This document shows, piece by piece, positions 9,730 through 64,000 of a stretch of 64,000 nucleotides of DNA (position 1 is the first letter of the stretch; each line of letters begins with the position of its first letter). The stretch is from the IMG/VR virus record IMGVR_UViG_2974511964_000001, positions 32,001-96,000 of that record; one strand, written 5' to 3'. The translations under genes and the position numbers were made by a program. The notes under the pieces were generated by a model. It was given only the letters and a program-made list of their open reading frames with translations. It made no database searches and was not told the DNA's origin. The DNA is from a virus (taxonomy: Duplodnaviria > Caudoviricetes).

Positions 9730-9817
9730 CAAATATATTGGGGAGATTTCATTCTCCTCTTTATATTACATATATGAGAGGGAAACCTCTAAATAAAATA
9801 CAAAGGAGTATTAATAT

Positions 9818-31026: not shown

Positions 31027-31059
31027 TTGACAAAGCATATCAGAAATGGTATGCTTTTT
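31027..31059 (+). promoter_or_regulatory. Hairpin promoter/terminator cassette, copy 1
   Basis: TTGACA-AAGCATATCAGAAATGG-TATGCT-TTTT; palindrome spans spacer and -10. Confidence 0.85.
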
Positions 31060-31452: not shown

Positions 31453-33710
31453 ATGGTTAAAGTAATGGCAGTACTAGAGTTCCCTAGAGTATCATATTTC
31501 AAGAAGTCTACTAATGGAGAGTATGATTTTAATTTTATGTCTACTAGGGCTGGAAAGCTACTAAATAAGACATTGACAGCTCCTAGAGCAGGATTAGGAC
31601 TTGATTTAAAAGATGTTGATATAGAATTTGCGTATGATTCTATTCCAAAAGTATATAAAGACAATAGCTATGCACCTATCTCAATTAAATCTGGTAAGCC
31701 TTCCTTTGATAGATTAAAAGCTAAGATAGCAGAAACTAATCCAGATTTACTATTAGCGTTTGGTGGCACATCTTGTTTAGCATTGTTGGGTAAGAAGGGG
31801 GTTAATGACCTAAGAGGACGCCCTTATGATTTATCCTTAGAGAATAGAACTTACACTGTTTTCCCAATGCTTAACCCAGAAGATATTTTAACTTCACCTA
31901 ATAAAGAACTACTGTTAAAAGTTGATATTGGTCTAGTTAAACGATTTTTAAAGGGTGGCAAGGAAGCTTTAAAGCCTAACGTAGGTAAGTATGAACTGGT
32001 GGAAGACTTTAGTAGAGTTAAACAAATATTTACTAACATTTTAGGGTTACCCCCATTGTCTAAGCCTAAATATAATATTGTAGCAGTCGATACCGAAACT
32101 AATACACTGGAAACTAACAACAAGGGTGCTAAGCCTATTATTCTATCATTGTCATGGGAAGAGCACCAAGGAGTATGTATCCCTCTAAAGCATGATTTAG
32201 TCCCAGATTTATGGACAGATGAACAGTTTAACCAAATAAAACAGTGGATACTAGATTTATTTGAAGCGGACCAGTGGAAGGTTCTACACAATGGGAAATA
32301 TGATATCAAGATGTTTATGGATACTTATGGGCTAAAACATGCTCGCAAGTGTGTGGATACCTTAATCATGTTCTGGATTAGCGTTATCGAAGAAAGCACA
32401 GTCAGCAAAGGGTTGAAGGATTTAGCTTGGTTATATACGGATATGGGTGGTTATGAAGAACCACTAGATGAATTTAAAGAATCCTATGTACAAAAGGATT
32501 ATGACCGTTGGTATAAGGAAGAGGAGCAGCGATTAATTGATGAGGCTAAAGCTAATCCATTAAAAACAGGTAAGCCTCGCAAGCCTAAATTACCAGCCAA
32601 GTCGAATTACCCCGGATTAGTTAACAAAGTGGATGGTAGCAAGTTTAACTATGAATGGATTCCATTAGAAATTATTTACCCGTATGCTGCCGGTGACACT
32701 GATGCTTGTTTACGGATTTATAATCAGTTGTTTAAGAAGGTTAAAACTAATCCTAATTGGGTAAACTTAGTGTTCAATGTGTATCCTAAGCTAGATGATG
32801 CCTTATGCCATATGGAACATAACGGTTTACAAATTGACAATAACAAGGCCAAAGAGCTGGCTAAGGCTTATGGTGACCGTAAAGAAAACACCTTGAATGC
32901 TATTCATAAGATAGTTCCAGAGATTAAGCAGGTAGAGCAAGAGAGAATTGATAACCTAGCTAAGCGAGCTAAACTAATGGCAAGTGTTAAGCCTAAGGAT
33001 AGAACTGAGGAAGATAAAGCTTTCATCAAAGAGGCTGGTAAGTACAACGGTAACAACCCTAAGACTGGTGAGCCAAAGTATAAAGTTAATTTAGACTCGA
33101 ATAATGACCTCGGATATATTCTGTATGAAGTATTGGGGTATACCTTACCACCAGAACCAAACTTTCTAACTGATACTACTGTTAAGCACCGTATTCCACA
33201 AGATAAGCTAACTTATAAAAACTATCGAGTTAATATCGAGGCTATTGAGTATATTCGTGATAACTATGATAAGAAGCTAGGTGAGTTGCTAGTAACGTAT
33301 AGTAAGACTGTTACTGCCTTGTCAGGTTTTGTGCTTAAGTTACCAGCATTACAAGACCCTAATGGGAGAATCCATACTAGGTTTAACCCAACTGGTACAG
33401 TTACAAGCCGCCTTAGCTCGTCAGGAAATTTTAATGCTCAGAACCTTACTAGGCCAGAAACAGACCCCCGCAAGTTTAATCATAAGTATTCAGTTAAGTC
33501 AATGATTCATTCCCGTTTTAAGGGTGGTGTTATTGCCAATATTGACTTTAAATCACTGGAAGTATATGTAATGGCACTTATCTCTAAAGACCGCTCCTTA
33601 ACGCAAACATTACTAGATAATAAAGATGTTCATAAGCATAATGCTAGTGTTGCCTATGGTATACCGGAAGAGGATGTAACTAAGGATTTACGAACGAAAG
33701 CAAAAGCCGT
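31453..33710 (+). CDS. Family A DNA polymerase, exon 1 (UDG-like N-domain, 3'-5' exonuclease, motif A)
   Basis: VDTET, HNGKYD, YAAGD, TGTVTSRLSS, DFKSLE, DVH, R.KAKAV. Confidence 0.92.
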
Positions 33711-53220: not shown

Positions 53221-53703
53221 ATGACAAATCAAAAGACAGCTTACTATGCCGGAGGTTGGTTTAATGATGTACAGTGTAAACTATTATCCGATGGAAAGAA
53301 AGCTTTAATTGCTAATTCTACAGTTGACTTTGACAACTCGTATGTACCATTAGAACATCAATATAAAGGGCTAGACGTTGATAGCCACCCTGAATTAATG
53401 CAAGACCAAGAATGGCAAGCTGGCACCTATCTAGGAGATGTATCAGGTATCTCTGGCACAGACTTAGTGGTAGCTTTTATTGACCCTGATGAAGTAGACC
53501 CCGGGACTACGTTTGAAATGGGATATGGTATGGCTATTCACAAGCCAGTGGTGGTTGTTATTCCAGATAAGCCAGAAGGAGAAGTTACCGAACTTAATCT
53601 AATGGTAGCCAAAGGATGTACCCAAGTAATCACAATGAGTGAATTAGTGACTTTTAACTTTAACCTTATTCCAGCTAAGCCATATTTAGGTAAAGTATTT
53701 TAA
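53221..53703 (+). CDS. Nucleoside 2-deoxyribosyltransferase
   Basis: Y.AGGWF, PLEHQYKG, D..G...D, DPGT.FEMG, NLM, as in Lactobacillus NDT. Confidence 0.88.
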   Translation: MTNQKTAYYAGGWFNDVQCKLLSDGKKALIANSTVDFDNSYVPLEHQYKGLDVDSHPELMQDQEWQAGTYLGDVSGISGTDLVVAFIDPDEVDPGTTFEMGYGMAIHKPVVVVIPDKPEGEVTELNLMVAKGCTQVITMSELVTFNFNLIPAKPYLGKVF

Positions 53704-53710
53704 ATAAATA

Positions 53711-53742
53711 TTGACAAAGCATATCAGAAATTGTATGCTTTT
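53711..53742 (+). promoter_or_regulatory. Hairpin promoter/terminator cassette, copy 4
   Basis: TTGACAAAGCATATCAGAAATTGTATGCTTTT. Confidence 0.85.
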
Positions 53743-53765: not shown

Positions 53766-56156
53766 ATGAGAGTCATTTATTGTACAGTAGGAATGCCAGC
53801 ATCTGGCAAGAGTACATTTTTGAAGCATTCACCATTAAAAGATTATGTGGTTGCTACTGATGAGTTACGTAAACTGGTATCAACACCACAAATTAATTAT
53901 ACACCTGACACTGATGCAATTACTGTTGGGTTAAATAATGACATTAATAAAAAGATTTGGGATATGACTTATACACTGGTTGAGGATAGAATGAAGAACG
54001 GTGAAACTATTGCAGTTGATGCAACTTTTCTGTTTAAGTCTCCCTTCTCAACTATTAAAAAGTTATGTAAGCTATACAATTATCGTTTGATTACAATTGA
54101 TTTTATTAATACCGGATTATCTTTTGAACAATTATTAGACCGAAATAATAATATTGACCGAGTGCAAGAGCACAAGGATGTATCTTATGATACTATGAAG
54201 AAGTTCTGGAATCGCCAGCAGAATATCACTGTCCCTAACAACTGGAACATGATTAAACCCGAAGAGCTAGAACAATCATTAGCTTGGCACTGCTCCAATG
54301 TTGACAACTATAAACAAGTTATCGTTATTGGGGATATTCACAGTAGCTACACAGTATTAACTGCTGCTCTTAAAGACAATGACCCAATTGATAACCCTGA
54401 TAAGTTATATGTTTTCTTAGGGGACTACTTAGACCGAGGAACTAAACCAGCAGAAACATTCAAGTGGCTATATGAACGCAAGGATTTACCTAATATGGTT
54501 CTACTACGAGGTAACCATGAGTATCATTTAGAACACCACTACCAAGGACTACCTATCACTAATAGTGGTGCTCGTAAGGAAACAATTCCAGCATTATATA
54601 AAGCAGGTATTACTAAGGAAGATATTCGTAAGTTTGTCCGTAAGCTACAAGATGTTTACTATATTGAATATCATGGTCAAAAGTATTTATTCAGCCATGC
54701 TGGGGTTCCTACAACCCCTGAGTTTTTAAAGACAACCACAGGCATTCCACTATTTGTGGATACTAAAATTGGCTTAGAAGAAATTAACCTATTAGATGAA
54801 TCTGTGTTTACTAAGGGTATTGGTGGTTTTAAAATTAATCTAGAACAATACAATCATGATTATAGTAATAGCACGGTTTACCCAATTCAAATTCACGGCC
54901 ACCGCAATGTTCAGCTTAACAAGGCTAAGTGGGATAATACCATCAACCTAGAACAACAAGTAGATACTGGGGGTAACTTAGCCATGGTAGTGCTAACGGG
55001 TGATAAGCATGAGATTAAGCTGGTTAAAAATAACGACTTTGACTATGCCTACGCTACTGACAAGGCCGATATTGATTTAAATATCCTTAGTAATGAACAG
55101 GTTAAAGACATTATGGAAAGAACCAAAGGGATTAGACAGAAACGTGATGCTAGTGGATTAACTGCTAACAACTTTACCCCAGAAGTTTTTTATGGTGATA
55201 ATTTTAATAAGTTTAGTGTAACTGCCAGAGGTCTATTTACTGACAGCAATGGTGATGTGCAACTACGTGGGTTTAACAAGTTCTTTGTTCTCGACCAGCG
55301 TCCTGAAACCAAGCTAACCGCAGTGCTAAAGAATGCTAAATACCCTGTGGTTGCTGCTAAAAAGTACGATGGTCACTTATCCTTACTAGGGTGGTACGAC
55401 GGGAAGCCCCGTATGTTTACCAAGAGTGGCTCGACTAATCTAGCCAAGGTTGACTGGCATAACTTTAGTCGGTACCTGCACGATATTGATAGGTATACAT
55501 TCATGGAAGACTGGCTAAAATTGCATCAGAATAAGACGATTTTAATGGAGTCTCTTAACGAAGCCGAAGATGCTCACTTAGTGGATACTCATGGTAAGGT
55601 TGGCTTTAGATTGTTAGAAGTAATTGAAAATAAGTATGAGCCTACTGGTGGACGTAATTTCACAGATACTAACTTGCTAACCGCATTACTAGGGGAAACT
55701 GACAAATGCTACTTTAAGATGGCTGAACGGTATGAAATTGCTAATGACAGGGAATTAATGGAACTAATTAATAGTTCTAAACAAACTAACTACAAGTTGC
55801 CATTGGGTAGTTACTATCAAGGGATTGACCCAACTACTTATGAAGGTTGGGTATTGACATTTGCTGATGGTTTTAAGATTAAGGTTAAAAATGCCTATTT
55901 CTTAGCAATCAAAGAATTTCGTAATAAGCTAGAAGTGGCCTTAGATAACCCAATGTATTATAAGGGTAACGCTTGGAATAACCTAGTTGACCGCAGTTAT
56001 AATGAACAAGCTAAGCGATTATTAAGAGCTGTTGCTGGTAAAGAGTTTGCACCTTTCTTTGAAAATCGAGATAAAATGAGTAATATTGACCTACCACAAG
56101 CTTTGAAAGCTACTGGGCTAGACCATAATAAGATTGTTGAAATTGTGAGTGACTAA
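53766..56156 (+). CDS. RNA repair enzyme: polynucleotide kinase + metallophosphoesterase + RNA ligase
   Basis: GMPASGKST; GDIH, GDYLDRG, GNHE, HAG, HGH; RGLF, F.KFF, KYDG, EGWV, KVK. Confidence 0.88.
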   Translation: MRVIYCTVGMPASGKSTFLKHSPLKDYVVATDELRKLVSTPQINYTPDTDAITVGLNNDINKKIWDMTYTLVEDRMKNGETIAVDATFLFKSPFSTIKKLCKLYNYRLITIDFINTGLSFEQLLDRNNNIDRVQEHKDVSYDTMKKFWNRQQNITVPNNWNMIKPEELEQSLAWHCSNVDNYKQVIVIGDIHSSYTVLTAALKDNDPIDNPDKLYVFLGDYLDRGTKPAETFKWLYERKDLPNMVLLRGNHEYHLEHHYQGLPITNSGARKETIPALYKAGITKEDIRKFVRKLQDVYYIEYHGQKYLFSHAGVPTTPEFLKTTTGIPLFVDTKIGLEEINLLDESVFTKGIGGFKINLEQYNHDYSNSTVYPIQIHGHRNVQLNKAKWDNTINLEQQVDTGGNLAMVVLTGDKHEIKLVKNNDFDYAYATDKADIDLNILSNEQVKDIMERTKGIRQKRDASGLTANNFTPEVFYGDNFNKFSVTARGLFTDSNGDVQLRGFNKFFVLDQRPETKLTAVLKNAKYPVVAAKKYDGHLSLLGWYDGKPRMFTKSGSTNLAKVDWHNFSRYLHDIDRYTFMEDWLKLHQNKTILMESLNEAEDAHLVDTHGKVGFRLLEVIENKYEPTGGRNFTDTNLLTALLGETDKCYFKMAERYEIANDRELMELINSSKQTNYKLPLGSYYQGIDPTTYEGWVLTFADGFKIKVKNAYFLAIKEFRNKLEVALDNPMYYKGNAWNNLVDRSYNEQAKRLLRAVAGKEFAPFFENRDKMSNIDLPQALKATGLDHNKIVEIVSD

Positions 56157-56170
56157 ATTAAAATAATGTA

Positions 56171-56202
56171 TTGACAAAGGATACCATAGATGGTATCCTT
56201 TT
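56171..56202 (+). promoter_or_regulatory. Hairpin promoter/terminator cassette, copy 5
   Basis: TTGACAAAGGATACCATAGATGGTATCCTTTT; near-identical to copy 2 through the RBS. Confidence 0.85.
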
Positions 56203-57238: not shown

Positions 57239-57305
57239 GGAGTAATTTTATGTATAAAATTAGGATGACTGATAAAGCTCATAAAGTGTTTGGTGAGGTT
57301 AAATA

Positions 57306-57494
57306 ATGAGCTGGTTTAATAGAAATAAAAATTGTCCGTATTGTACTCAAACAATGCCTTTTATGAGTAGGGAAGGGATTGAGTTGAGGATTGTATATGG
57401 TAACCAACTATTTACAAGTTATGAAAGTAAACAGATTAATATCACTATTAACTATTGCCCAATGTGTGGTAGAAAGCTGATGGGAGTTAAATAA
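57306..57494 (+). CDS. Small zinc-ribbon protein
   Basis: CPYC...INYCPMCGRKL. Confidence 0.7.
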   Translation: MSWFNRNKNCPYCTQTMPFMSREGIELRIVYGNQLFTSYESKQINITINYCPMCGRKLMGVK

Positions 57495-57880
57495 TGGAAC
57501 AGCTAGATTTATTTGATACAACAACTAGTACAACTACTAAGAAGGTTACCCGTAAGCGTAAACGTAAGGTTAAGGTAACCACTACCACCACCACTACCAC
57601 TACACAGCCTATCAACCAGCTACTTGTTGATGAAGAGTCAAAGCTAAAAGAACTGTTATCTCAGCCCAAACAATTCGATGCTCTGAGAGGGGCTATAAGC
57701 TGGTTTAAGTCCAAACAGTATACTTGGTACTGTAACACGGTAGAACGTCCTGAGCGAGCTCTGAGGGGTCTTCAAAGCCATTTGAACGTGTCTGACGATA
57801 AATTTTATAAGATGTTGCTTAATGACAAGGTAATGGTAGGGTTAGCAAAAGGAACCTATTTAGTTTATTATAAAAAATGA
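57494..57880 (+). CDS. Hypothetical protein with Thr-rich and basic N-terminus
   Basis: QLDLF, poly-Thr, RKRKRK. Confidence 0.6.
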   Translation: MEQLDLFDTTTSTTTKKVTRKRKRKVKVTTTTTTTTTQPINQLLVDEESKLKELLSQPKQFDALRGAISWFKSKQYTWYCNTVERPERALRGLQSHLNVSDDKFYKMLLNDKVMVGLAKGTYLVYYKK

Positions 57881-57881
57881 G

Positions 57882-57911
57882 TTGACAAAGCATATCAGAA
57901 ATGGTATGCTT
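57882..57911 (+). promoter_or_regulatory. Hairpin promoter cassette, copy 6 (drives tnpB-1)
   Basis: TTGACAAAGCATATCAGAAATGGTATGCTT. Confidence 0.85.
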
Positions 57912-57944
57912 AATACATAGATTAAATTGAAAAGAGGTGATAAA

Positions 57945-59081
57945 ATGTATAAAGCATATAAAATTAGAATTTACCCTAATAGACAACAAGAAACACAAAT
58001 ATTATTAACATTTGGTCATACTAGATTTGTTTGGAACCAAATGTTAGCCATGCAACTAGAACGCTATAAGAATGGTGGTAAGTTTGTTAATGCTTTTGGT
58101 ATGAACTACCTATTGACGCAGTTAAAAAAGGAGTACTCGTGGCTAACTGAATCTCCTAATCAAAGCTTACAGCAGGTATGCAAAGACTTATCAGATGCTT
58201 TTAAAAATCTGTTTGGACATAGAGCGAATAAACCAAAGTATAAGAGTAGAAAATACCCAAAGCAGAGTTATAGGTGTAACCAGAGGATATCGTTAGTAGA
58301 CGGTCACCATATCAAGCTACCAAAACTTAAGACTGTGTACTACCGTTCTGGTAAAGAAATTAAAGGAAAAATTAAAAGTGTAACTATTCGTAAATCACCA
58401 ACAGGTAAATATTATGCTAGCGTTCTGACTGAAATAGAGATTAAACCTTTAGCGAAAACCAAACAAGAGGTTGGAATTGATATGGGAGTTAAGGATTTAG
58501 CAATTACTAGTGATGGTACTAAATACAGAACTATCCGCTTTGATAAGTTATTAGCTGATAAGAAGCATTATTGGGAAGTACGGTTAGCAAGACGCCAAGC
58601 GTTAGCTAAGAAAGAAATAGCATGGGATAAACACAATAGAGTATTAGAACCCAGAGAGTTATCAGATTTTAGCAACTATATGAAAGCCAAACTAATGGTA
58701 GCTAAGTACAGTGAGAAGATAGCTAATCAAAGGAAAGACTATCTTCATAAGATTAGTACTGAGTTAGTAAACCAGTATGATGTTATCAAGGTTGAAGATT
58801 TGAAAGCTAGCAATATGATGAAAAATCACAAGCTATCACGAGCGATTGCTAATCAATCATGGAGAGAGCTACGTTTGATGTTAGAATACAAGTGTGAGTG
58901 GTATGGTAAAAAATTAGTGGTTGTTAGCCCATACAAAACCAGTCAAATTTGTTCATCATGTGGATATGATGATGGCAAACATACCCTAGATGTTAGAGAA
59001 TGGGTTTGTCCTAATTGTGGAGCTAAGCATGATAGAGATATCAATGCAGCTAAGAACATTCTAAAAGCAGAAGCAAAGTAG
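57945..59081 (+). CDS. tnpB: TnpB RNA-guided endonuclease (IS200/IS605 family), catalytic triad intact
   Basis: KAYKIRIYPN, GIDMG (D), VEDL (E), TSQICSSCG..CPNCG..HDRDINAAKNI (D). Confidence 0.95.
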   Translation: MYKAYKIRIYPNRQQETQILLTFGHTRFVWNQMLAMQLERYKNGGKFVNAFGMNYLLTQLKKEYSWLTESPNQSLQQVCKDLSDAFKNLFGHRANKPKYKSRKYPKQSYRCNQRISLVDGHHIKLPKLKTVYYRSGKEIKGKIKSVTIRKSPTGKYYASVLTEIEIKPLAKTKQEVGIDMGVKDLAITSDGTKYRTIRFDKLLADKKHYWEVRLARRQALAKKEIAWDKHNRVLEPRELSDFSNYMKAKLMVAKYSEKIANQRKDYLHKISTELVNQYDVIKVEDLKASNMMKNHKLSRAIANQSWRELRLMLEYKCEWYGKKLVVVSPYKTSQICSSCGYDDGKHTLDVREWVCPNCGAKHDRDINAAKNILKAEAK

Positions 59082-59084
59082 AAA

Positions 59085-59222
59085 CACAATGTAAGGCTAG
59101 GGACTAGCCGTGGTAAAATAGTTATAGCCTCTGTATACTGCTAGTTTAGGGTATATAAGTTGTAATGTTCCCAGAAGCTCGTTACTTTAGCAACGAGTAG
59201 TTCATCAATCGTGCTATGCAGG
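59085..59222 (+). ncRNA. TnpB omegaRNA 3' part / IS605-type right end with putative guide
   Basis: GGCTAG-GGA-CTAGCC hairpin whose loop region can pair with TTCCC; terminal hairpin CTCGTT..AACGAG then TAGTTCA(T); guide approx. CAATCGTGCTATGCAGG. Confidence 0.7.
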
Positions 59223-59257
59223 AAGCTAATCACATCCGAAGAGAGGGTAGGGTAATT

Positions 59258-59593
59258 ATGCATAATTATGGTAGGACTAATAAATTTAAAACTGTTAAAA
59301 CAAAGAGCCTTAAAAATTACACCGGTATTAATGATGCCACAGGTGAACCAATCTATGTTGGGGATGTCGTTGAAAGAGTGCTTGATATGAGGAATGCATA
59401 CTCAGCAGGAGAAAATAGAGATAAAGAGAAATTCCCGGACTTTGATAAGATGGGTGAACCATTTAAGGTTAAGCGTGATTGCTACTTGTACGGCCATTGG
59501 ATTGCTAAAAGTGTAGCTGATGGCGACAAATTTGGTGTAGATGGGTTCCACTTTGGTAAAGAATTACTAAAAGTAAATGGAGGAAACAAATAA
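59258..59593 (+). CDS. Hypothetical protein (YopX-like TG..D.TG.PIY.GD motif)
   Basis: YTGINDATGEPIYVGDVV. Confidence 0.55.
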   Translation: MHNYGRTNKFKTVKTKSLKNYTGINDATGEPIYVGDVVERVLDMRNAYSAGENRDKEKFPDFDKMGEPFKVKRDCYLYGHWIAKSVADGDKFGVDGFHFGKELLKVNGGNK

Positions 59594-60711
59594 TGAAAGT
59601 AATTAGTACAGATAAAGCGACCTTCCGATTAATGGCCGGGGATGACTTAGTAGTAACAGATAACTTACCAGTAGGAACATACGAAGTGCAATTTTCTATG
59701 CGGCAAGGATATTGGTTAACTAAGCGAGATAATTTTGCTATTGGTAACAAGAAAGTATATGGCAACCAGCCAGAACGGATTAAGAAGATTTTTCATAACT
59801 TTAATAAACGTGATTCTAACTTAGGCGTTATGCTATCAGGAACTAAAGGTATGGGTAAAACTTTGTTCTCTAAGATGGTAGCTCAGGAAGCTATTAAAGA
59901 AGGTATCCCAGTAATTAATGTGGGTAACAATTATCCCGGTATTACTGATTTCTTAGATTCGATTAAGCAGGAAGCATTGGTTTTAATTGATGAATTTGAA
60001 AAACGATTCCCAGCTGATAGTGATGATAGTGATGGTCCTACTCAAAATGACTTCTTAACATTGTTAGATGGGACAGCATCTGCTAAGCATCTCTATGTAG
60101 CAACTGTGAACAATTTGCAACGGATTAATGAGTATCTAATTAACCGTCCGGGTCGTTTCTACTATCATTTTCGATTCAACTATCCTAGCTATGAAGAAGT
60201 TACTGCTTTGTTAAATGATGCAATTTCTGATGAAAACAAGGATAAAATCCCTGAGGTTCAGCGGTTAACCTCTAGTGTTAGCCTAAACTATGATGCTTTG
60301 TTAGCAATTGCTAATGAAATTAACGAAGGCTACGGTGTTAAAGATACTATTAGTGACTTAAACATTCAAGCTGATGGTAATTATGAAAGCTACAAAGCTA
60401 TGGTTACTTTTAAGAATGGTGAAACCTTTACAGTAAAGGCTTCTAATTCTAATGATGAAAGCACCATGTCAGTGTACGGGAAAGGCAATCAAACACCTAG
60501 GGAATGGTCAGCTAAACTCGAATTAGGTAAAGGAACTGTTAAACCTGATGGGACTATTGTATTCCTAAACAATGGTAAGGGTATTAGAAGTGCTAAGTAT
60601 GACGATGTGGGTAATAGCGATGAATGGAACGATACCTCTGAAAACCCGATTACTAAGGTTTTATTAAAGCGAGATGTTAAGGACAGTTATGCATTCAATC
60701 AGTTTTACTAG
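59593..60711 (+). CDS. AAA+ ATPase
   Basis: GTKGMGKT, LIDEFEK, LLDG, TVN, NRPGRF. Confidence 0.9.
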   Translation: MKVISTDKATFRLMAGDDLVVTDNLPVGTYEVQFSMRQGYWLTKRDNFAIGNKKVYGNQPERIKKIFHNFNKRDSNLGVMLSGTKGMGKTLFSKMVAQEAIKEGIPVINVGNNYPGITDFLDSIKQEALVLIDEFEKRFPADSDDSDGPTQNDFLTLLDGTASAKHLYVATVNNLQRINEYLINRPGRFYYHFRFNYPSYEEVTALLNDAISDENKDKIPEVQRLTSSVSLNYDALLAIANEINEGYGVKDTISDLNIQADGNYESYKAMVTFKNGETFTVKASNSNDESTMSVYGKGNQTPREWSAKLELGKGTVKPDGTIVFLNNGKGIRSAKYDDVGNSDEWNDTSENPITKVLLKRDVKDSYAFNQFY

Positions 60712-61562: not shown

Positions 61563-62386
61563 ATGGTACTGGTGTATTCCCTACAGTAACGCCTACCTTA
61601 GTGCCGGATAGTTTCTTAGCCTTTGACGAGGCTAACAGTTACTTAGATAAACAGCAACGCTCATTAGACTATTTGGACCGTATTCAAAAATTGGCAGTGA
61701 TTACTAAAACTAGTATTGACATTAATAATACAAATGGGTATAATAGAGCAGTATATATTAATAAATTAAATCATCTTAGTAAGCTACCAACAACTAGTAT
61801 TGTGTTTACTAAATCAGCTCTTAAAGAACATGTGGGTAAGCCTATAAGTGTAGCTGAGTTTAAAGACTTAGCTGATGAGCTGAATAGTGATGATGACAGT
61901 ATGCAAGTGTCAGTTGAAAGTCAAGTTGGGCTACTAATAGTAGAACCACAATCCCAAGCAGAAGCTATGCGTAAACTTATTCGTAAATTTTGGGAACAAG
62001 GACATACCATGAATGGCGATTGGAAGGTTCCAATTGTTTCAGGTCAAGATGCTAAGTTTGTTAATATGAACATAAGCATGGGTGAGTCGAAAGGTGTAAC
62101 GAGTGACCAAGCCGAAGACCTTTATGAGCAAGTAAAGAAATTAACTAATGACCCAGAGTATGAAAGACAAATTGACAATAGGATTGAAAAAGCATACGCC
62201 AATAAACTGCGCTCTGATAAGTTTTTAAGAGAAGAAGACTTTACGGTATACCCTGAGTTCATGGATGGCACAAATAAGCAGATAGAGCATGCAGCGCAAC
62301 ACAATATTGATGCTATTAATAGTGTATTTCATACTAATACTGCTAAATTTGTAAATACTAAAGAAGAAAAGGATGAAGAATATTGA
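61526..62386 (+). CDS. C-terminal extension read in the -1 frame (annotated GTG at 61601 lacks an RBS)
   Basis: Open from 61526, in frame with 61601-62386. Confidence 0.6.
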   Translation, partial: LTKGRRAIFTKLNGTGVFPTVTPTLVPDSFLAFDEANSYLDKQQRSLDYLDRIQKLAVITKTSIDINNTNGYNRAVYINKLNHLSKLPTTSIVFTKSALKEHVGKPISVAEFKDLADELNSDDDSMQVSVESQVGLLIVEPQSQAEAMRKLIRKFWEQGHTMNGDWKVPIVSGQDAKFVNMNISMGESKGVTSDQAEDLYEQVKKLTNDPEYERQIDNRIEKAYANKLRSDKFLREEDFTVYPEFMDGTNKQIEHAAQHNIDAINSVFHTNTAKFVNTKEEKDEEY

Positions 62387-63471
62387 ATAATTTAATTATT
62401 AATGCTGATAACATGGAAAACTCAACAGTTGAGAATAATGAAGTTAGCACCCAAGTAGACAGCTTAGAATTAACTGATGACAGTATTGCTAAGTTTGGCT
62501 TAGATGTCCAACGTGGCGTTGGTGAATTAACTAGTGAAATCACCCAAAGTACCAAGAATAAGAATGCGGGGGAAACTGGTGAAGCAATTACCGCCTTAAT
62601 GAAAATTATTCGTGAAAACGGCAAAGAGGAAGACCAGGGTGGTAACATTATTACCCGTTTGTTCCGCAAAGGTAAGAACTCTGTATATAATATCCAAGCT
62701 AAGAATCAAGCGGTAGACAAATCTATTGATACTATTTCTACCAAACTATCAGATTCCCAGACTGAGCTGAGCCATGACAATGAAACACTAGACAAGATGT
62801 ATGAGCAGAACAAGCAACAGTTTCAAGCCTTAAATGAACTAGTTGATATTGCTCAGGCCAAATTAAATGAGCTAGAATCGTCTATTATTCCAGAGTTAGA
62901 TAACTACATTAAAACGACTAAGGATAGCGAGGATAAAATTAATGAGGCCACAATTAAGCTTAATGAATACCAGAATATGCAGTCAGCTTTGAGCCGTAAA
63001 CTTAATAATCTAATTGCTTCTCGCCAACTAGCGTTATTACGAGCGCCTAAGCTAAAGACTTTAAAGCAAACTAACTTAACAGTCATTGATAACTTACAGA
63101 GCTCAATTAACTTTGCAATTCCACTGTGGAAACAGCAAGCAGCAGATGCTATCCTATCTAGTCGTCAACAGCAGGCTATTGAGGTTCAGAAGTTCATGAC
63201 TGAGCAGACTAATAAGATGATTGTATCTGGGGCCAATAATGTTCGTAAGGCTACTTTAGAGGCTCAAAAGCAGAGCAATGAATCCTTTGTATCGGCATCT
63301 AAATTAACACAAGCTACTGATATCTTGCGAGATACTCTCGTACAAGTGCAAAGCTTACAAAAGCAAGGAGACTCTTTACGCAAACAGGAAGCTAAGGACT
63401 TGCTACAGTCTGGGGAACACATGAAAAGTGTGGCTTTAGACTTGATGAATAATAATAAACTAATTGAATAA
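62383..63471 (+). CDS. telA: TelA/YaaN toxic anion resistance protein
   Basis: I..FG...Q, L..DN..LD.MY.QN, L..K..NL, AIPLWK.Q, TN.MI...A. Confidence 0.85.
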   Translation: MNNLIINADNMENSTVENNEVSTQVDSLELTDDSIAKFGLDVQRGVGELTSEITQSTKNKNAGETGEAITALMKIIRENGKEEDQGGNIITRLFRKGKNSVYNIQAKNQAVDKSIDTISTKLSDSQTELSHDNETLDKMYEQNKQQFQALNELVDIAQAKLNELESSIIPELDNYIKTTKDSEDKINEATIKLNEYQNMQSALSRKLNNLIASRQLALLRAPKLKTLKQTNLTVIDNLQSSINFAIPLWKQQAADAILSSRQQQAIEVQKFMTEQTNKMIVSGANNVRKATLEAQKQSNESFVSASKLTQATDILRDTLVQVQSLQKQGDSLRKQEAKDLLQSGEHMKSVALDLMNNNKLIE

Positions 63472-63476
63472 AATAA

Positions 63477-63507
63477 TTGACAAAGCATACCAAAAATGGT
63501 ATGTTTA
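63477..63507 (+). promoter_or_regulatory. Hairpin promoter cassette, copy 8 (drives tnpB-2)
   Basis: TTGACAAAGCATACCAAAAATGGTATGTTT. Confidence 0.85.
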
Positions 63508-63539
63508 ATACATATATTAAATTGAAAGGAGGTGAAAGT

Positions 63540-64000
63540 ATGTATAAAGCGTATAAAATTAGAATTTACCCTAATAAACAACAAGAAGCACAAATATTAT
63601 TAACTTTTGGACAGACTAGATTTGTTTGGAATAAAATGTTAGATATGCAATTAGAACGATACAGGAATGGTGGTAAGTTTGTTAACGCTTTTAGTATGGA
63701 CTACCTATTGAAGCCACTGAAAAAAGAATATCCGTGGTTAACGGAGGCGCCTGCGCAAAGTCTACAACAGATATGTAAAGACTTATCAGATGCTTTTAAA
63801 AATCTGTTTGAACATAGGGCAGGCAAACCCAAGTATAAGAGCAAAAAGTACCCAAAGCAGAGTTATAGATGCAACCAAAGGATAATGTTAGTAGATGACC
63901 ACCATATCAAGTTACCTAAACTAGGTTCTGTGTACTATCGCTCTGGTAGAGAAATTAAAGGTAAGATTAAAAGCGTAACTATCCGTAAATCTGCTACCAA
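63540..64000 (+). CDS. tnpB: Second TnpB (5' part, runs off the window)
   Basis: MYKAYKIRIYPNKQQEAQILLTFGQTRFVWN..., closely similar to 57945-59081. Confidence 0.92.
   Translation, partial: MYKAYKIRIYPNKQQEAQILLTFGQTRFVWNKMLDMQLERYRNGGKFVNAFSMDYLLKPLKKEYPWLTEAPAQSLQQICKDLSDAFKNLFEHRAGKPKYKSKKYPKQSYRCNQRIMLVDDHHIKLPKLGSVYYRSGREIKGKIKSVTIRKSAT

Follow-up and report, generated by a model that had tools for sequence, protein, structure and literature searches.

The window analysed here is a 64,000-nt stretch (positions 32,001 to 96,000) of the genome of a lytic 138-kb Harbinvirus (Herelleviridae) of L. plantarum, whose complete sequence has 137,973 bp. Several nucleases are encoded in this one phage genome. 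Two tnpB genes lie on the forward strand of the window: copy 1 (57945-59081) encodes 378 aa, and copy 2 starts at 63540 and runs past the window end at 64000, the whole gene occupying genome coordinates 95540-96673. Directly upstream of copy 1 is a hairpin promoter (57882-57910, forward strand), in which the -35 box TTGACA (57882-57887) is followed by a 17-nt spacer, a TG extension (57902-57903) and the -10 box TATGCT (57905-57910), and from the spacer onwards an inverted repeat (AGCATATCA/TGGTATGCT) occupies 57889-57910. The leader that comes next (57911-57944, forward strand), with its ribosome binding site (RBS) AGAGGTGA at 57933-57940, stands where an IS left end would be expected and is also found in copy 2 and in the relatives L143 and L152. 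The hairpin promoter and leader of copy 2 lie at 63477-63539 on the forward strand, and both copies share the promoter consensus TTGACA-17-TATGYT within a hairpin. A preliminary description of this DNA had put both genes about 30 bp after a phage hairpin promoter and behind a common leader; the measured distance from the hairpin and -10 box to the ATG is 34 nt in both copies, and 33 nt of the leader (57912-57944) are common to them. The 27-nt promoter core occurs five times in the window (31027, 35777, 53711, 57882 and 63477) against 0 expected, the identical cores at 31027, 35777 and 53711 precede genes other than tnpB, and variants are present at 56171 and 60727. A looser pattern returned 8 sites genome-wide, to which the 53711 copy missed by that pattern is to be added, and most of these precede non-tnpB genes. 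This is a genuine repeated phage promoter of the host sigma-A type that also drives ordinary phage genes. With such a promoter, a phage-style leader and an RBS, the tnpB lineage would be expressed like an ordinary phage gene, and the promoter type suggests that the expression is early.

Copy 1 gave Pfam matches above the cut-offs to HTH_OrfB_IS605 (PF12323), OrfB_IS605 (PF01385) and Cas12f1-like_TNB (PF07282), and could be aligned over its full length with ISDra2 TnpB (8bf8/8exa; E=1.5e-68). The RuvC motifs GIDMG, KVEDL and HDRDINAA align with the catalytic motifs of ISDra2 and both CxxC pairs of the zinc finger (CSSC and CPNC) are kept; the D-E-D triad and zinc finger had been described as intact, and they are. 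The dN/dS comparison suggested earlier gave 0.07 at dS 0.96 for copy 1 vs copy 2, which indicates long-term purifying selection on both genes, and judging from these features the nuclease and its omegaRNA look functional. On a wider survey, 614 of 50,697 phage records match the copy-1 TnpB protein. A protein-pattern scan of IMG/VR gave relatives of at most 48% identity only, and the close relatives discussed below come from a large protein collection.

No match to the Y1 transposase TnpA (PF01797) was obtained at E<=1 in the whole 137,973-bp genome, and the control genomes did match. Left-end hairpins of the CL1 type or LP65 type are likewise lacking within 4 mismatches in the whole genome, as well as in the loci of the clade with at least 81% TnpB identity. 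Only 34 nt are available between the -10 box and the tnpB ATG. Thus the earlier reading that there is neither tnpA nor an IS left end is borne out at the genome scale. Related tnpA-bearing elements are those of the phages CL1 and Lbab1, IS605-type elements with divergent tnpA and tnpB genes whose TnpB proteins are 63-67% identical to ours. They share with our cassettes a near-identical right-end hairpin, the terminus and the RBS region, but each encodes a Y1 TnpA of 140 aa and has a left-end hairpin with T[CT]TAT in its flank, and the window copies have neither. The copy-1 leader overlaps with the IS of phage CL1 only in its RBS-proximal part (ATTGAAAAGAGGTGA). The idea that the promoter hairpin is a disguised left end was also considered and rejected: the same promoter stands before non-tnpB genes, and the real left-end hairpins in CL1 and Lbab1 mirror the right-end hairpin, unlike the promoter hairpin here. 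Across the promoter-leader-tnpB junction the two copies have diverged about as much as within the gene itself. Therefore the form without a left end is old, yet still selected. Recent gene conversion of the 5′ end between the copies was another candidate, rejected because divergence in the promoter and leader is about the same as elsewhere in the cassette.

tnpB-only elements are common, and the cassettes could be non-autonomous members of the IS200/IS605 group, mobilised in trans by TnpA from the host or from a different phage. The intact right-end hairpin, with its resemblance to the tnpA-bearing CL1 and Lbab1 elements, would suit such elements. Peel-and-paste transposition leaves no direct repeat; here neither type of left-end hairpin known from the relatives is present, the promoter hairpin and the right-end hairpin are unalike, at copy 1, copy 2 and L143 DNA has been replaced, in contrast to a simple insertion next to a TAM (target-adjacent motif), and L146 is flanked by an 8-bp direct repeat that is foreign to this mechanism. 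In addition, the published description of the Harbinvirus genomes states that no homologue could be found in L. plantarum (PMC6669764). We consider mobilisation in trans quite improbable.

The omegaRNA scaffold, which forms the IS right end (59000-59205, forward strand, with an approximate 5′ limit), shares sequence with the 3′ end of tnpB and was delimited from a nine-sequence alignment, RNAalifold and more than 25 elements. RNAalifold found 50 pairs in the nine-sequence alignment, 20 of them with compensatory changes, including the pairing of about 59000-59006 with the final right-end bases. Compensatory changes are also seen between copies 1 and 2, both of which carry the covariation-supported omegaRNA; an Rfam search with it matched no family. 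The terminal hairpin of the copy-1 right end is at 59178-59197 and the scaffold finishes in TAGTTCAT. More than 25 related elements all terminate in GTAGTTCA[CT], beyond which their flanks are unrelated. This common terminus sets the copy-1 right end at 59205 and the start of the guide at 59206 (CAATCGTGCTATGCAG), so the presence of an intact right end with omegaRNA and the guide as it had first been read were both correct. In sister phages, where the YopX-like gene is intact, the counterpart of the guide-encoding flank (59206-59225, forward strand; CAATCGTGCTATGCAGGAAG) lies at about codons 102-108 of that gene. For copy 2 the right end stops at genome coordinate 96803 and is followed by the guide CAATGTGGTATCCTTT, which falls in the promoter of the downstream gene, covering the hairpin 3′ arm and the -10 box. 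This last position is what might be expected of an RNA-guided regulator that represses a neighbouring or rival promoter with no cutting, as is known for TldR, an exapted nuclease-dead TnpB acting as an RNA-guided repressor (PMC10705468). Like the present genes, TldR is a phage-borne TnpB relative without tnpA, but its RuvC catalytic residues are lost and it is guided to a promoter of the host. Here nothing is missing from the D-E-D triad or from the C-terminal RuvC/TNB region, and the search for host targets gave none above chance; also, what precedes the guide DNA in the phage's own genome is the right end and not a TAM-like flank. A regulator of this kind is therefore extremely improbable.

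To place the guides, four public Harbinvirus genomes were compared, with cassette-free alleles available in Bacchae, Semele and Lpa804. Copy 1 was found only in the present phage, while copy 2 is also in Semele at the same site and the site is empty in Bacchae and Lpa804. The copy-1 guide matches Bacchae in 22/22 nt, preceded by GAAAT, within an intact 246-aa YopX-like gene. It has 3 mismatches in the first 16 nt in Semele, and Lpa804 is strongly diverged across the site. For copy 2 the match to Bacchae is 15/16, with the mismatch at guide position 5, given which this allele may not be cleavable. Downstream of copy 1 the window retains a remnant of the YopX-like gene, a 125-aa ORF (59216-59593, forward strand; BLASTP, Pfam YopX and DNA alignments) with an in-frame ATG at 59258 that has a better RBS. 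The remnant aligns with Bacchae residues 106-246 (BLASTP E=4e-74) and the first 105 codons of the 246-aa gene are absent. Hence copy 1 is no clean insertion; about 315 coding nt and the 5′ UTR of the target gene are gone, and copy 2 similarly replaces the 5′ half of a promoter. The copy-1 site is also a mosaic boundary, identity to Bacchae being 80% in the left flank and, from 59311 on, 98% in the right flank, with about 85 nt adjoining the guide unlike all three sister phages. In the preliminary description the finding that the guide is only the flank of a recent insertion, with an identifiable left end and empty-site alleles, was to count against its interpretation. Empty alleles do exist, but the left end is absent and copy 1 is a replacement. 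With only four public genomes to compare, the polymorphism could also reflect ordinary mosaic recombination at promoter repeats in which the nuclease is uninvolved.

Further targets of the guides were searched at three levels. In the whole phage genome no second site was present within 3 mismatches to either guide. In 401 Lactobacillaceae genomes the copy-1 guide (20-mer, at most 2 mismatches) gave 2 matches against about 3 by chance, the chance figure being our own estimate, and in neither match is the 5′ flank similar. In IMG/VR, scans for exact guide matches yielded Bacchae and scattered unrelated contigs that are apparently chance 17-mer matches, so that apart from these the exact copy-1 target is carried by Bacchae only. 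Each guide is merely the flank of its own cassette, as for any TnpB element. These results bear on the proposal that the nucleases are truly domesticated, that is, kept for the benefit of the phage as a weapon against competing phages, prophages or host DNA, with the copying of the cassette incidental. The strong promoter and RBS, the long-term purifying selection, the several nucleases per genome and the perfect match of the copy-1 guide to coding sequence of a sister phage would all be consistent with it, and DNA would be cut by the same chemistry as in homing. It is opposed by the purely local origin of the guides, by the lack of an extra target in the phage genome or of any above chance in the Lactobacillaceae genomes, and by the single exact target carrier in IMG/VR; also presence and position differ from one close relative to the next, a pattern typical of selfish elements and not of a fixed function. 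We therefore regard the weapon proposal as unlikely. As for the roles listed in the preliminary description, those of homing drives and of action on competing phages gain from the guide matches in the empty alleles of sister phages and from the polymorphic loci, whereas targeting of host or prophage is not favoured by the chance-level result. Its term domesticated, if a fixed phage function is meant, is not supported, with cassettes present or absent at many loci and guides that are only flanks.

Related TnpB proteins of at least 81% identity are encoded at some ten separate loci of phage contigs, and tnpA is absent within 1.5 kb of them. Hairpin promoters precede six of these loci, and their stems differ between loci in a complementary way. 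The sole clean insertion/empty pair is that of L146 (TnpB 84% identical), for which the window has the empty site on the reverse strand (9754-9775; ATATAT then GTAATATAAAGAGGAG). The L146 flanks align to window positions 11132-9762 and 9771-8404, the empty counterpart of the insertion being window 9762-9771, and the L146 guide matches there over its first 14 nt. The inserted block is of 1391 bp and takes in the promoter together with a 61-nt segment before it that has no match in the sequences searched. For L143, whose cassette replaces 24 nt, Bacchae is empty at the site and matches the first 14 nt of the guide. The L143 module, consisting of tnpB and a gene for 332 aa, is flanked by a 52-nt direct repeat of the RNA-ligase promoter region (53683-53740, forward strand, in the window), from which promoter repeats appear clearly to mediate module exchange. 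Such exchange, together with the 52-nt repeat, would also be expected if the cassettes were inactive relics, neutral passengers shuffled by recombination between promoter repeats. Against relics stand the dN/dS of 0.07 over a dS of about 1, the intact catalytic residues and the compensatory omegaRNA changes, including those between copies 1 and 2, and we find this explanation very improbable.

Because the guides match these same sites in sister phages where the cassette is absent, the most likely mode of spread would be that of homing endonucleases and not that of tamed anti-host weapons. On the sequence evidence copies 1 and 2 are probably TnpA-independent, promoter-carrying homing cassettes of a phage-adapted TnpB-omegaRNA lineage, predicted to be active. 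The omegaRNA would be cut from the 3′ end of the tnpB transcript, with a guide of about 16 nt given by whatever DNA adjoins the right end. On co-infection with a related cassette-free phage, the complex would cut that phage at the matching site, and repair by recombination from the cassette-bearing genome would copy the cassette, its promoter and some flank into the rival, or else the rival allele would simply be lost. The net effect would be homing or marker exclusion without transposition. New loci would be colonised probably rarely, by recombination in which near-identical promoter copies serve as left homology, and the new junction would automatically set a new guide. More tentatively, and with somewhat less than even confidence, we suggest that the lineage dropped TnpA and the left end and switched to purely RNA-guided homing in lytic Lactobacillaceae phages, with the early promoter as the new left end, promoters as landing pads and junctions that re-programme the guide against the cassette-free allele of rival phages. 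Between viruses this would be a gene drive of natural origin, or a marker-exclusion system, that is RNA-guided and retargets itself.

The homing reading has parallels in known systems. In free-standing phage homing endonucleases (T4 Seg/Mob; SPO1/SP82 intron endonucleases) the nuclease gene is also present or absent between or within conserved genes, the target lies in the cassette-free allele beside the insertion point and the flanks are mosaic. They recognise DNA by protein contacts, whereas here recognition would be through an RNA guide that is reset by each junction. The concept of intronless homing and marker exclusion by phage homing endonucleases is summarised in PMC13565253. Another parallel, as far as it is described in that summary, is the TnpB-dependent and TnpA-independent spread of an IS605 element between plasmid copies, termed non-restorative homing (PMC11870625, via PMC13565253). 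The mechanism proposed here is the same, that is, a vacant homologous site is cut and recombination copies the element, but that element, as summarised, keeps TnpA and both ends, while the present case would concern co-infecting lytic phages in which transposition has been given up. TnpA-free homing into homologous DNA is shown for plasmids and for phages only proposed (PMC13565253), and the literature consulted gives speculation only on the role of phage-borne tnpB genes. The cassettes offer a concrete and testable case, as Bacchae and Semele are in culture collections, the predicted target is defined down to the single base and transposition is visibly abandoned. TnpB is thought to persist by restoring transposons after TnpA excision. 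If the homing reading is confirmed, RNA-guided nucleases would serve as homing or exclusion genes when viruses compete with each other, and the lineage would represent an intermediate step from transposon nuclease to host-independent guided nuclease. The homing reading would also account for the duplicated "transposases" of these phages that were puzzling to the describing authors (PMC6669764).

Lastly we compared the bases next to the targets. The right ends of the cassettes themselves read TTCAT and TCCAC, and the four empty sites, the T[CT]TAT left-end flanks of the tnpA-bearing relatives and the ISDra2 contacts taken together gave nothing consistent for the TAM except a Y at -1 and, mostly, an A at -2. 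ISDra2 TnpB (PDB 8bf8/8exa/8h1j) is like copy 1 in domain order, D-E-D triad, zinc finger, an omegaRNA over the gene 3′ end and right end, and a right-flank guide; it differs in that the present cassettes have a phage promoter and leader in place of tnpA and left end, and in the TAM contacts. At the positions of ISDra2 K76 and F77 the present proteins carry N/A and Q, therefore the TAM would not be TTGAT. The bases 5′ of the targets in the empty alleles are GAAAT, GATAC/GGTAC, ATATAT and AGAGT, with only Y at -1 common to all. The A at -2 in 3 of the 4 fits the invariant Gln equivalent to ISDra2 Q80, the reader of the -2 A.

The window, bases 32001-96000 of the record, was assigned by DNA matches to the genus Harbinvirus (Herelleviridae), lytic myophages of Lactiplantibacillus plantarum, with Semele, Bacchae and Lpa804 as the nearest public genomes, and three tnpB-like genes were found in the 137,973-bp genome. 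Copy 1 is a full gene (window 57945-59081), and copy 2, with 88% amino acid identity to it, starts at 63540 and continues past the window end. The third gene (L006; 133170-134264 of the whole record, minus strand) lies outside the window and is 40% identical to copy 1; its Bacchae homologue is annotated as a mobile element protein and adjoins a tRNA cluster. An AAA ATPase gene (59593-60711) lies directly 3′ of copy 1, and a TelA-like gene (toxic anion resistance, PF05816, E=3e-53; 62383-63471) directly 5′ of copy 2. The copy 1 protein has all three TnpB Pfam domains and aligns with ISDra2 TnpB over its full length (E=1.5e-68), and this alignment bears out the D-E-D triad and zinc finger of the preliminary description, with all three catalytic motifs and each CxxC pair intact. 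Comparison of copies 1 and 2 gave a dN/dS of 0.07 at a dS of 0.96, i.e. strong purifying selection, and this divergence contrasts with the mere 2-7% by which Harbinvirus backbones differ.

The phage hairpin promoter claimed before tnpB is present, with the -35 box TTGACA at 57882-57887, a 17-nt spacer filled by an inverted repeat of ~9 bp, then TG and the -10 box TATGCT (57905-57910). Its 27-nt core has 5 occurrences in the window, where none is expected, and a looser pattern gave 8 copies in the whole genome besides the one at 53711, which the pattern missed. These consensus sigma-A promoters, all with a ~9-bp inverted repeat as the 17-nt spacer, stand at window positions 31027, 35777, 53711, 56171, 57882, 60727 and 63477 and at 122263 and 125266 of the whole record (both minus strand). 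Since the majority precede ordinary genes, e.g. the RNA ligase at 53766, they constitute a genuine phage promoter family of the host sigma-A type. It is reasonable from the promoter, and no more than that, to call them early; Harbinvirus reportedly encodes a sigma factor of its own (PMC6669764). The arms vary in complementary fashion among the copies of the genome (GCATAT/GTATGC, GGATAC/GTATCC), and the same 40 nt are also present in the unrelated L. plantarum phages LP65, P1, P2, Satyr and Maenad. Possible roles of the palindrome are an operator, a cruciform or a recombination hot spot.

The leader of 34 nt between the -10 box and the ATG is common to copies 1 and 2, as had been described. 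Promoter and leader differ between the copies by ~10% and the gene by 15%, and no 5′ tract of raised identity was found on comparing promoter, leader and gene; the promoter-fused form without a left end therefore predates the split of the copies. The cassette has been maintained in that form under strong purifying selection ever since. The reported lack of tnpA and of a left end also holds for the whole genome: a Pfam Y1_Tnp search, which matched the control genomes, found no Y1 tnpA. A divergent tnpA of 140 aa is present in the related elements of CL1 and Lbab1 (63-67% identical), whose left-end hairpin (CTCGGTACTTCAGTGCCGAG; flank T[CT]TAT) mirrors the right-end hairpin, and LP65 and 521B carry another left-end-like segment of ~75 nt. 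Neither type of left end was found anywhere in the genome or beside the close metagenomic relatives. Similarity of the window copies to the CL1 element's interior is confined to the 15 nt proximal to the RBS, 5′ of which they consist entirely of phage promoter and phage-style leader.

Relatives were gathered from GenBank phages (CL1, 521B, ATCCB, Lbab1, Lb338-1, LP65), bacterial genomes and metagenomic phage contigs. More than 25 elements share a terminus 3′ of tnpB, GTAGTTCA[CT], beyond which the flanks are unrelated. This common terminus places the right end of copy 1 at 59205 and its guide from 59206 (CAATCGTGCTATGCAG...), exactly as first guessed. The consensus fold of the omegaRNA from a nine-sequence alignment has 50 pairs, 20 of them with compensatory double changes, so the omegaRNA reads as intact, again in agreement with the preliminary description; one helix joins bases near 59000, within the ORF, to the final bases of the right end. 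Differences between the copies in the terminal hairpin are likewise compensatory, and Rfam models gave no match to the omegaRNA. In view of selection, covariation and the intact active site, the genes are not decaying relics.

No copy 1 target had been seen in the window, and indeed no further site with ≤3 mismatches to either guide exists in the whole genome. Matches were found instead in cassette-free alleles of sister phages. Copy 2 forms a 1.3-kb block that this phage shares with Semele and that is missing from Bacchae and Lpa804; the corresponding site in Bacchae is a hairpin promoter, that of the gene following TelA, where GATAC is followed by CAATATGGTATCCTTT, with 1 mismatch to the copy 2 guide CAATGTGGTATCCTTT. 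At the copy 1 interval, the YopX-like gene of all three sister phages is intact (224-246 aa) and has a hairpin promoter of its own. In this phage, tnpB directly follows the promoter and the right end abuts approximately codon 102 of the YopX-like gene, leaving a 125-aa ORF that aligns to Bacchae residues 106-246. Bacchae has 22 consecutive bases identical to the copy 1 guide region with GAAAT immediately 5′; the Semele sequence departs from the guide at 3 of the first 16 positions, and that of Lpa804 has diverged strongly over the site. It may be noted that copy 1 marks a mosaic boundary. On its left, two small genes (57277-57887) are only 80% identical to Bacchae and 92% to Lpa804; on its right, the guide is followed by 85 nt (59226-59310) unlike all three sister phages, and identity to Bacchae is 98% from 59311 onward; also, ~2.2 kb of extra genes upstream of the region in Bacchae are absent here.

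Copy 1 has relatives at 81-100% identity in about 35 protein clusters. All nine clusters that were looked up lie on phage-like contigs, and none of these has tnpA within 1.5 kb of tnpB. Counting the two window copies, cassettes occupy ~10 different loci, among them sites 5′ of a 332-aa gene adjoining the RNA ligase and after a cII-like gene, and the intervals from lysin/holin to a tail gene, from portal to protease and from tail-tube to baseplate genes. At six loci (copy 1, copy 2 and contigs L143, L144, L146 and L152) tnpB is 3′ of the hairpin promoter at equal distance, with stems that vary in complementary fashion (GCATAT/GTATGC, GAATAC/GTATTC, GGTAC/GTATCC). Comparison of the L146 flanks places the empty site of its cassette at ~9754-9775 of the window (minus strand), where the L146 guide matches over its first 14 nt. 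The inserted block of 1391 bp extends from 61 nt 5′ of the -35 box to the right end and is bounded on both sides by an 8-bp direct repeat, GTAATATA (L146:1370-1377 and 2769-2776), that is single-copy in the empty site (9762-9769, minus strand); IS200/IS605 transposition makes no target duplication. In L143, a module of tnpB and the 332-aa gene lies between 52-nt direct repeats of the RNA-ligase promoter, and Bacchae, which has the 332-aa gene without tnpB, matches the L143 guide there over its first 14 nt. With tnpA and left end gone and junctions unlike peel-and-paste insertions, the cassettes are not transposons. The preliminary description had named as contrary evidence a guide that is only the flank of a recent insertion with empty-site alleles and an identifiable left end; the former are found in sister phages, the latter is not.

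The targets in the empty alleles are preceded by GAAAT, GATAC/GGTAC, ATATAT and AGAGT, and the right ends of copies 1 and 2 themselves read TTCAT and TCCAC. In ISDra2, Q80 is the Gln reading A at -2 of the TAM (PMC10097598); its equivalent is invariant in the family, and the residues at the K76 and F77 positions match neither ISDra2 nor the CL1 group, and even copy 1 and copy 2 differ there.

As each guide is directed at the cassette-free allele of its own locus in sister phages, the arrangement is as expected of a homing or marker-exclusion element, and we consider this role of the cassettes fairly probable. Parallels are the free-standing homing endonucleases known from T4-like and SPO1-like phages, as well as IS605 spreading from one plasmid copy to another without TnpA (PMC13565253). 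Domesticated weapons would use the same chemistry and differ mainly in who benefits, and we hold this to be unlikely. "Domesticated" in the sense of a fixed phage function is not supported, as presence and position of the cassette differ among close relatives, and the host targets that had been suggested did not emerge for the copy 1 guide, with matches at chance level only in 401 Lactobacillaceae genomes. For homing cassettes, the replacement-type junctions of copy 1, copy 2 and L143, together with the promoter travelling with the L146 block, hint more weakly at a route to new loci, in which the left crossover would fall within the promoter repeat and an illegitimate right junction would reset the guide.

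The authors of the Harbinvirus genomes annotated the tnpB genes as "transposases", drew attention to two paralogues in Dionysus, Semele and Iacchus, without ISfinder match or homologue in L. plantarum, and proposed the neighbouring AAA ATPase as a controller of transposition (PMC6669764). This control is unsupported because phages that lack the cassette have the ATPase too. We found no paper in the searchable literature on Harbinvirus tnpB as RNA-guided nucleases or on TnpB homing between phages; "non-restorative homing" into co-infecting phages is a theoretical possibility in a 2026 review (PMC13565253), and a cyanophage preprint offers speculation only. The element type is known, and the promoter-fused, tnpA-less variant appears to be undescribed in that literature.

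In the related elements of 521B and Lbab1 (L035:2747-2775 and L037:2771-2790) the guides begin in extended -10 boxes (TGGTATAAT), and the left flank in 521B has TTGTAA at the right distance, so that the element splits a promoter between -35 and -10 much like copy 2. In one metagenomic phage lineage (L153:1100-1388; also L154 and L156), a solo CL1-like omegaRNA/right-end remnant lies directly 5′ of tnpB, which is 87% identical. It ends in GAGTAGTTAAC directly before tnpB, so that its "guide" is the leader of the next tnpB; the arrangement could be tandem or nested, or a junction of right-end/left-end type.
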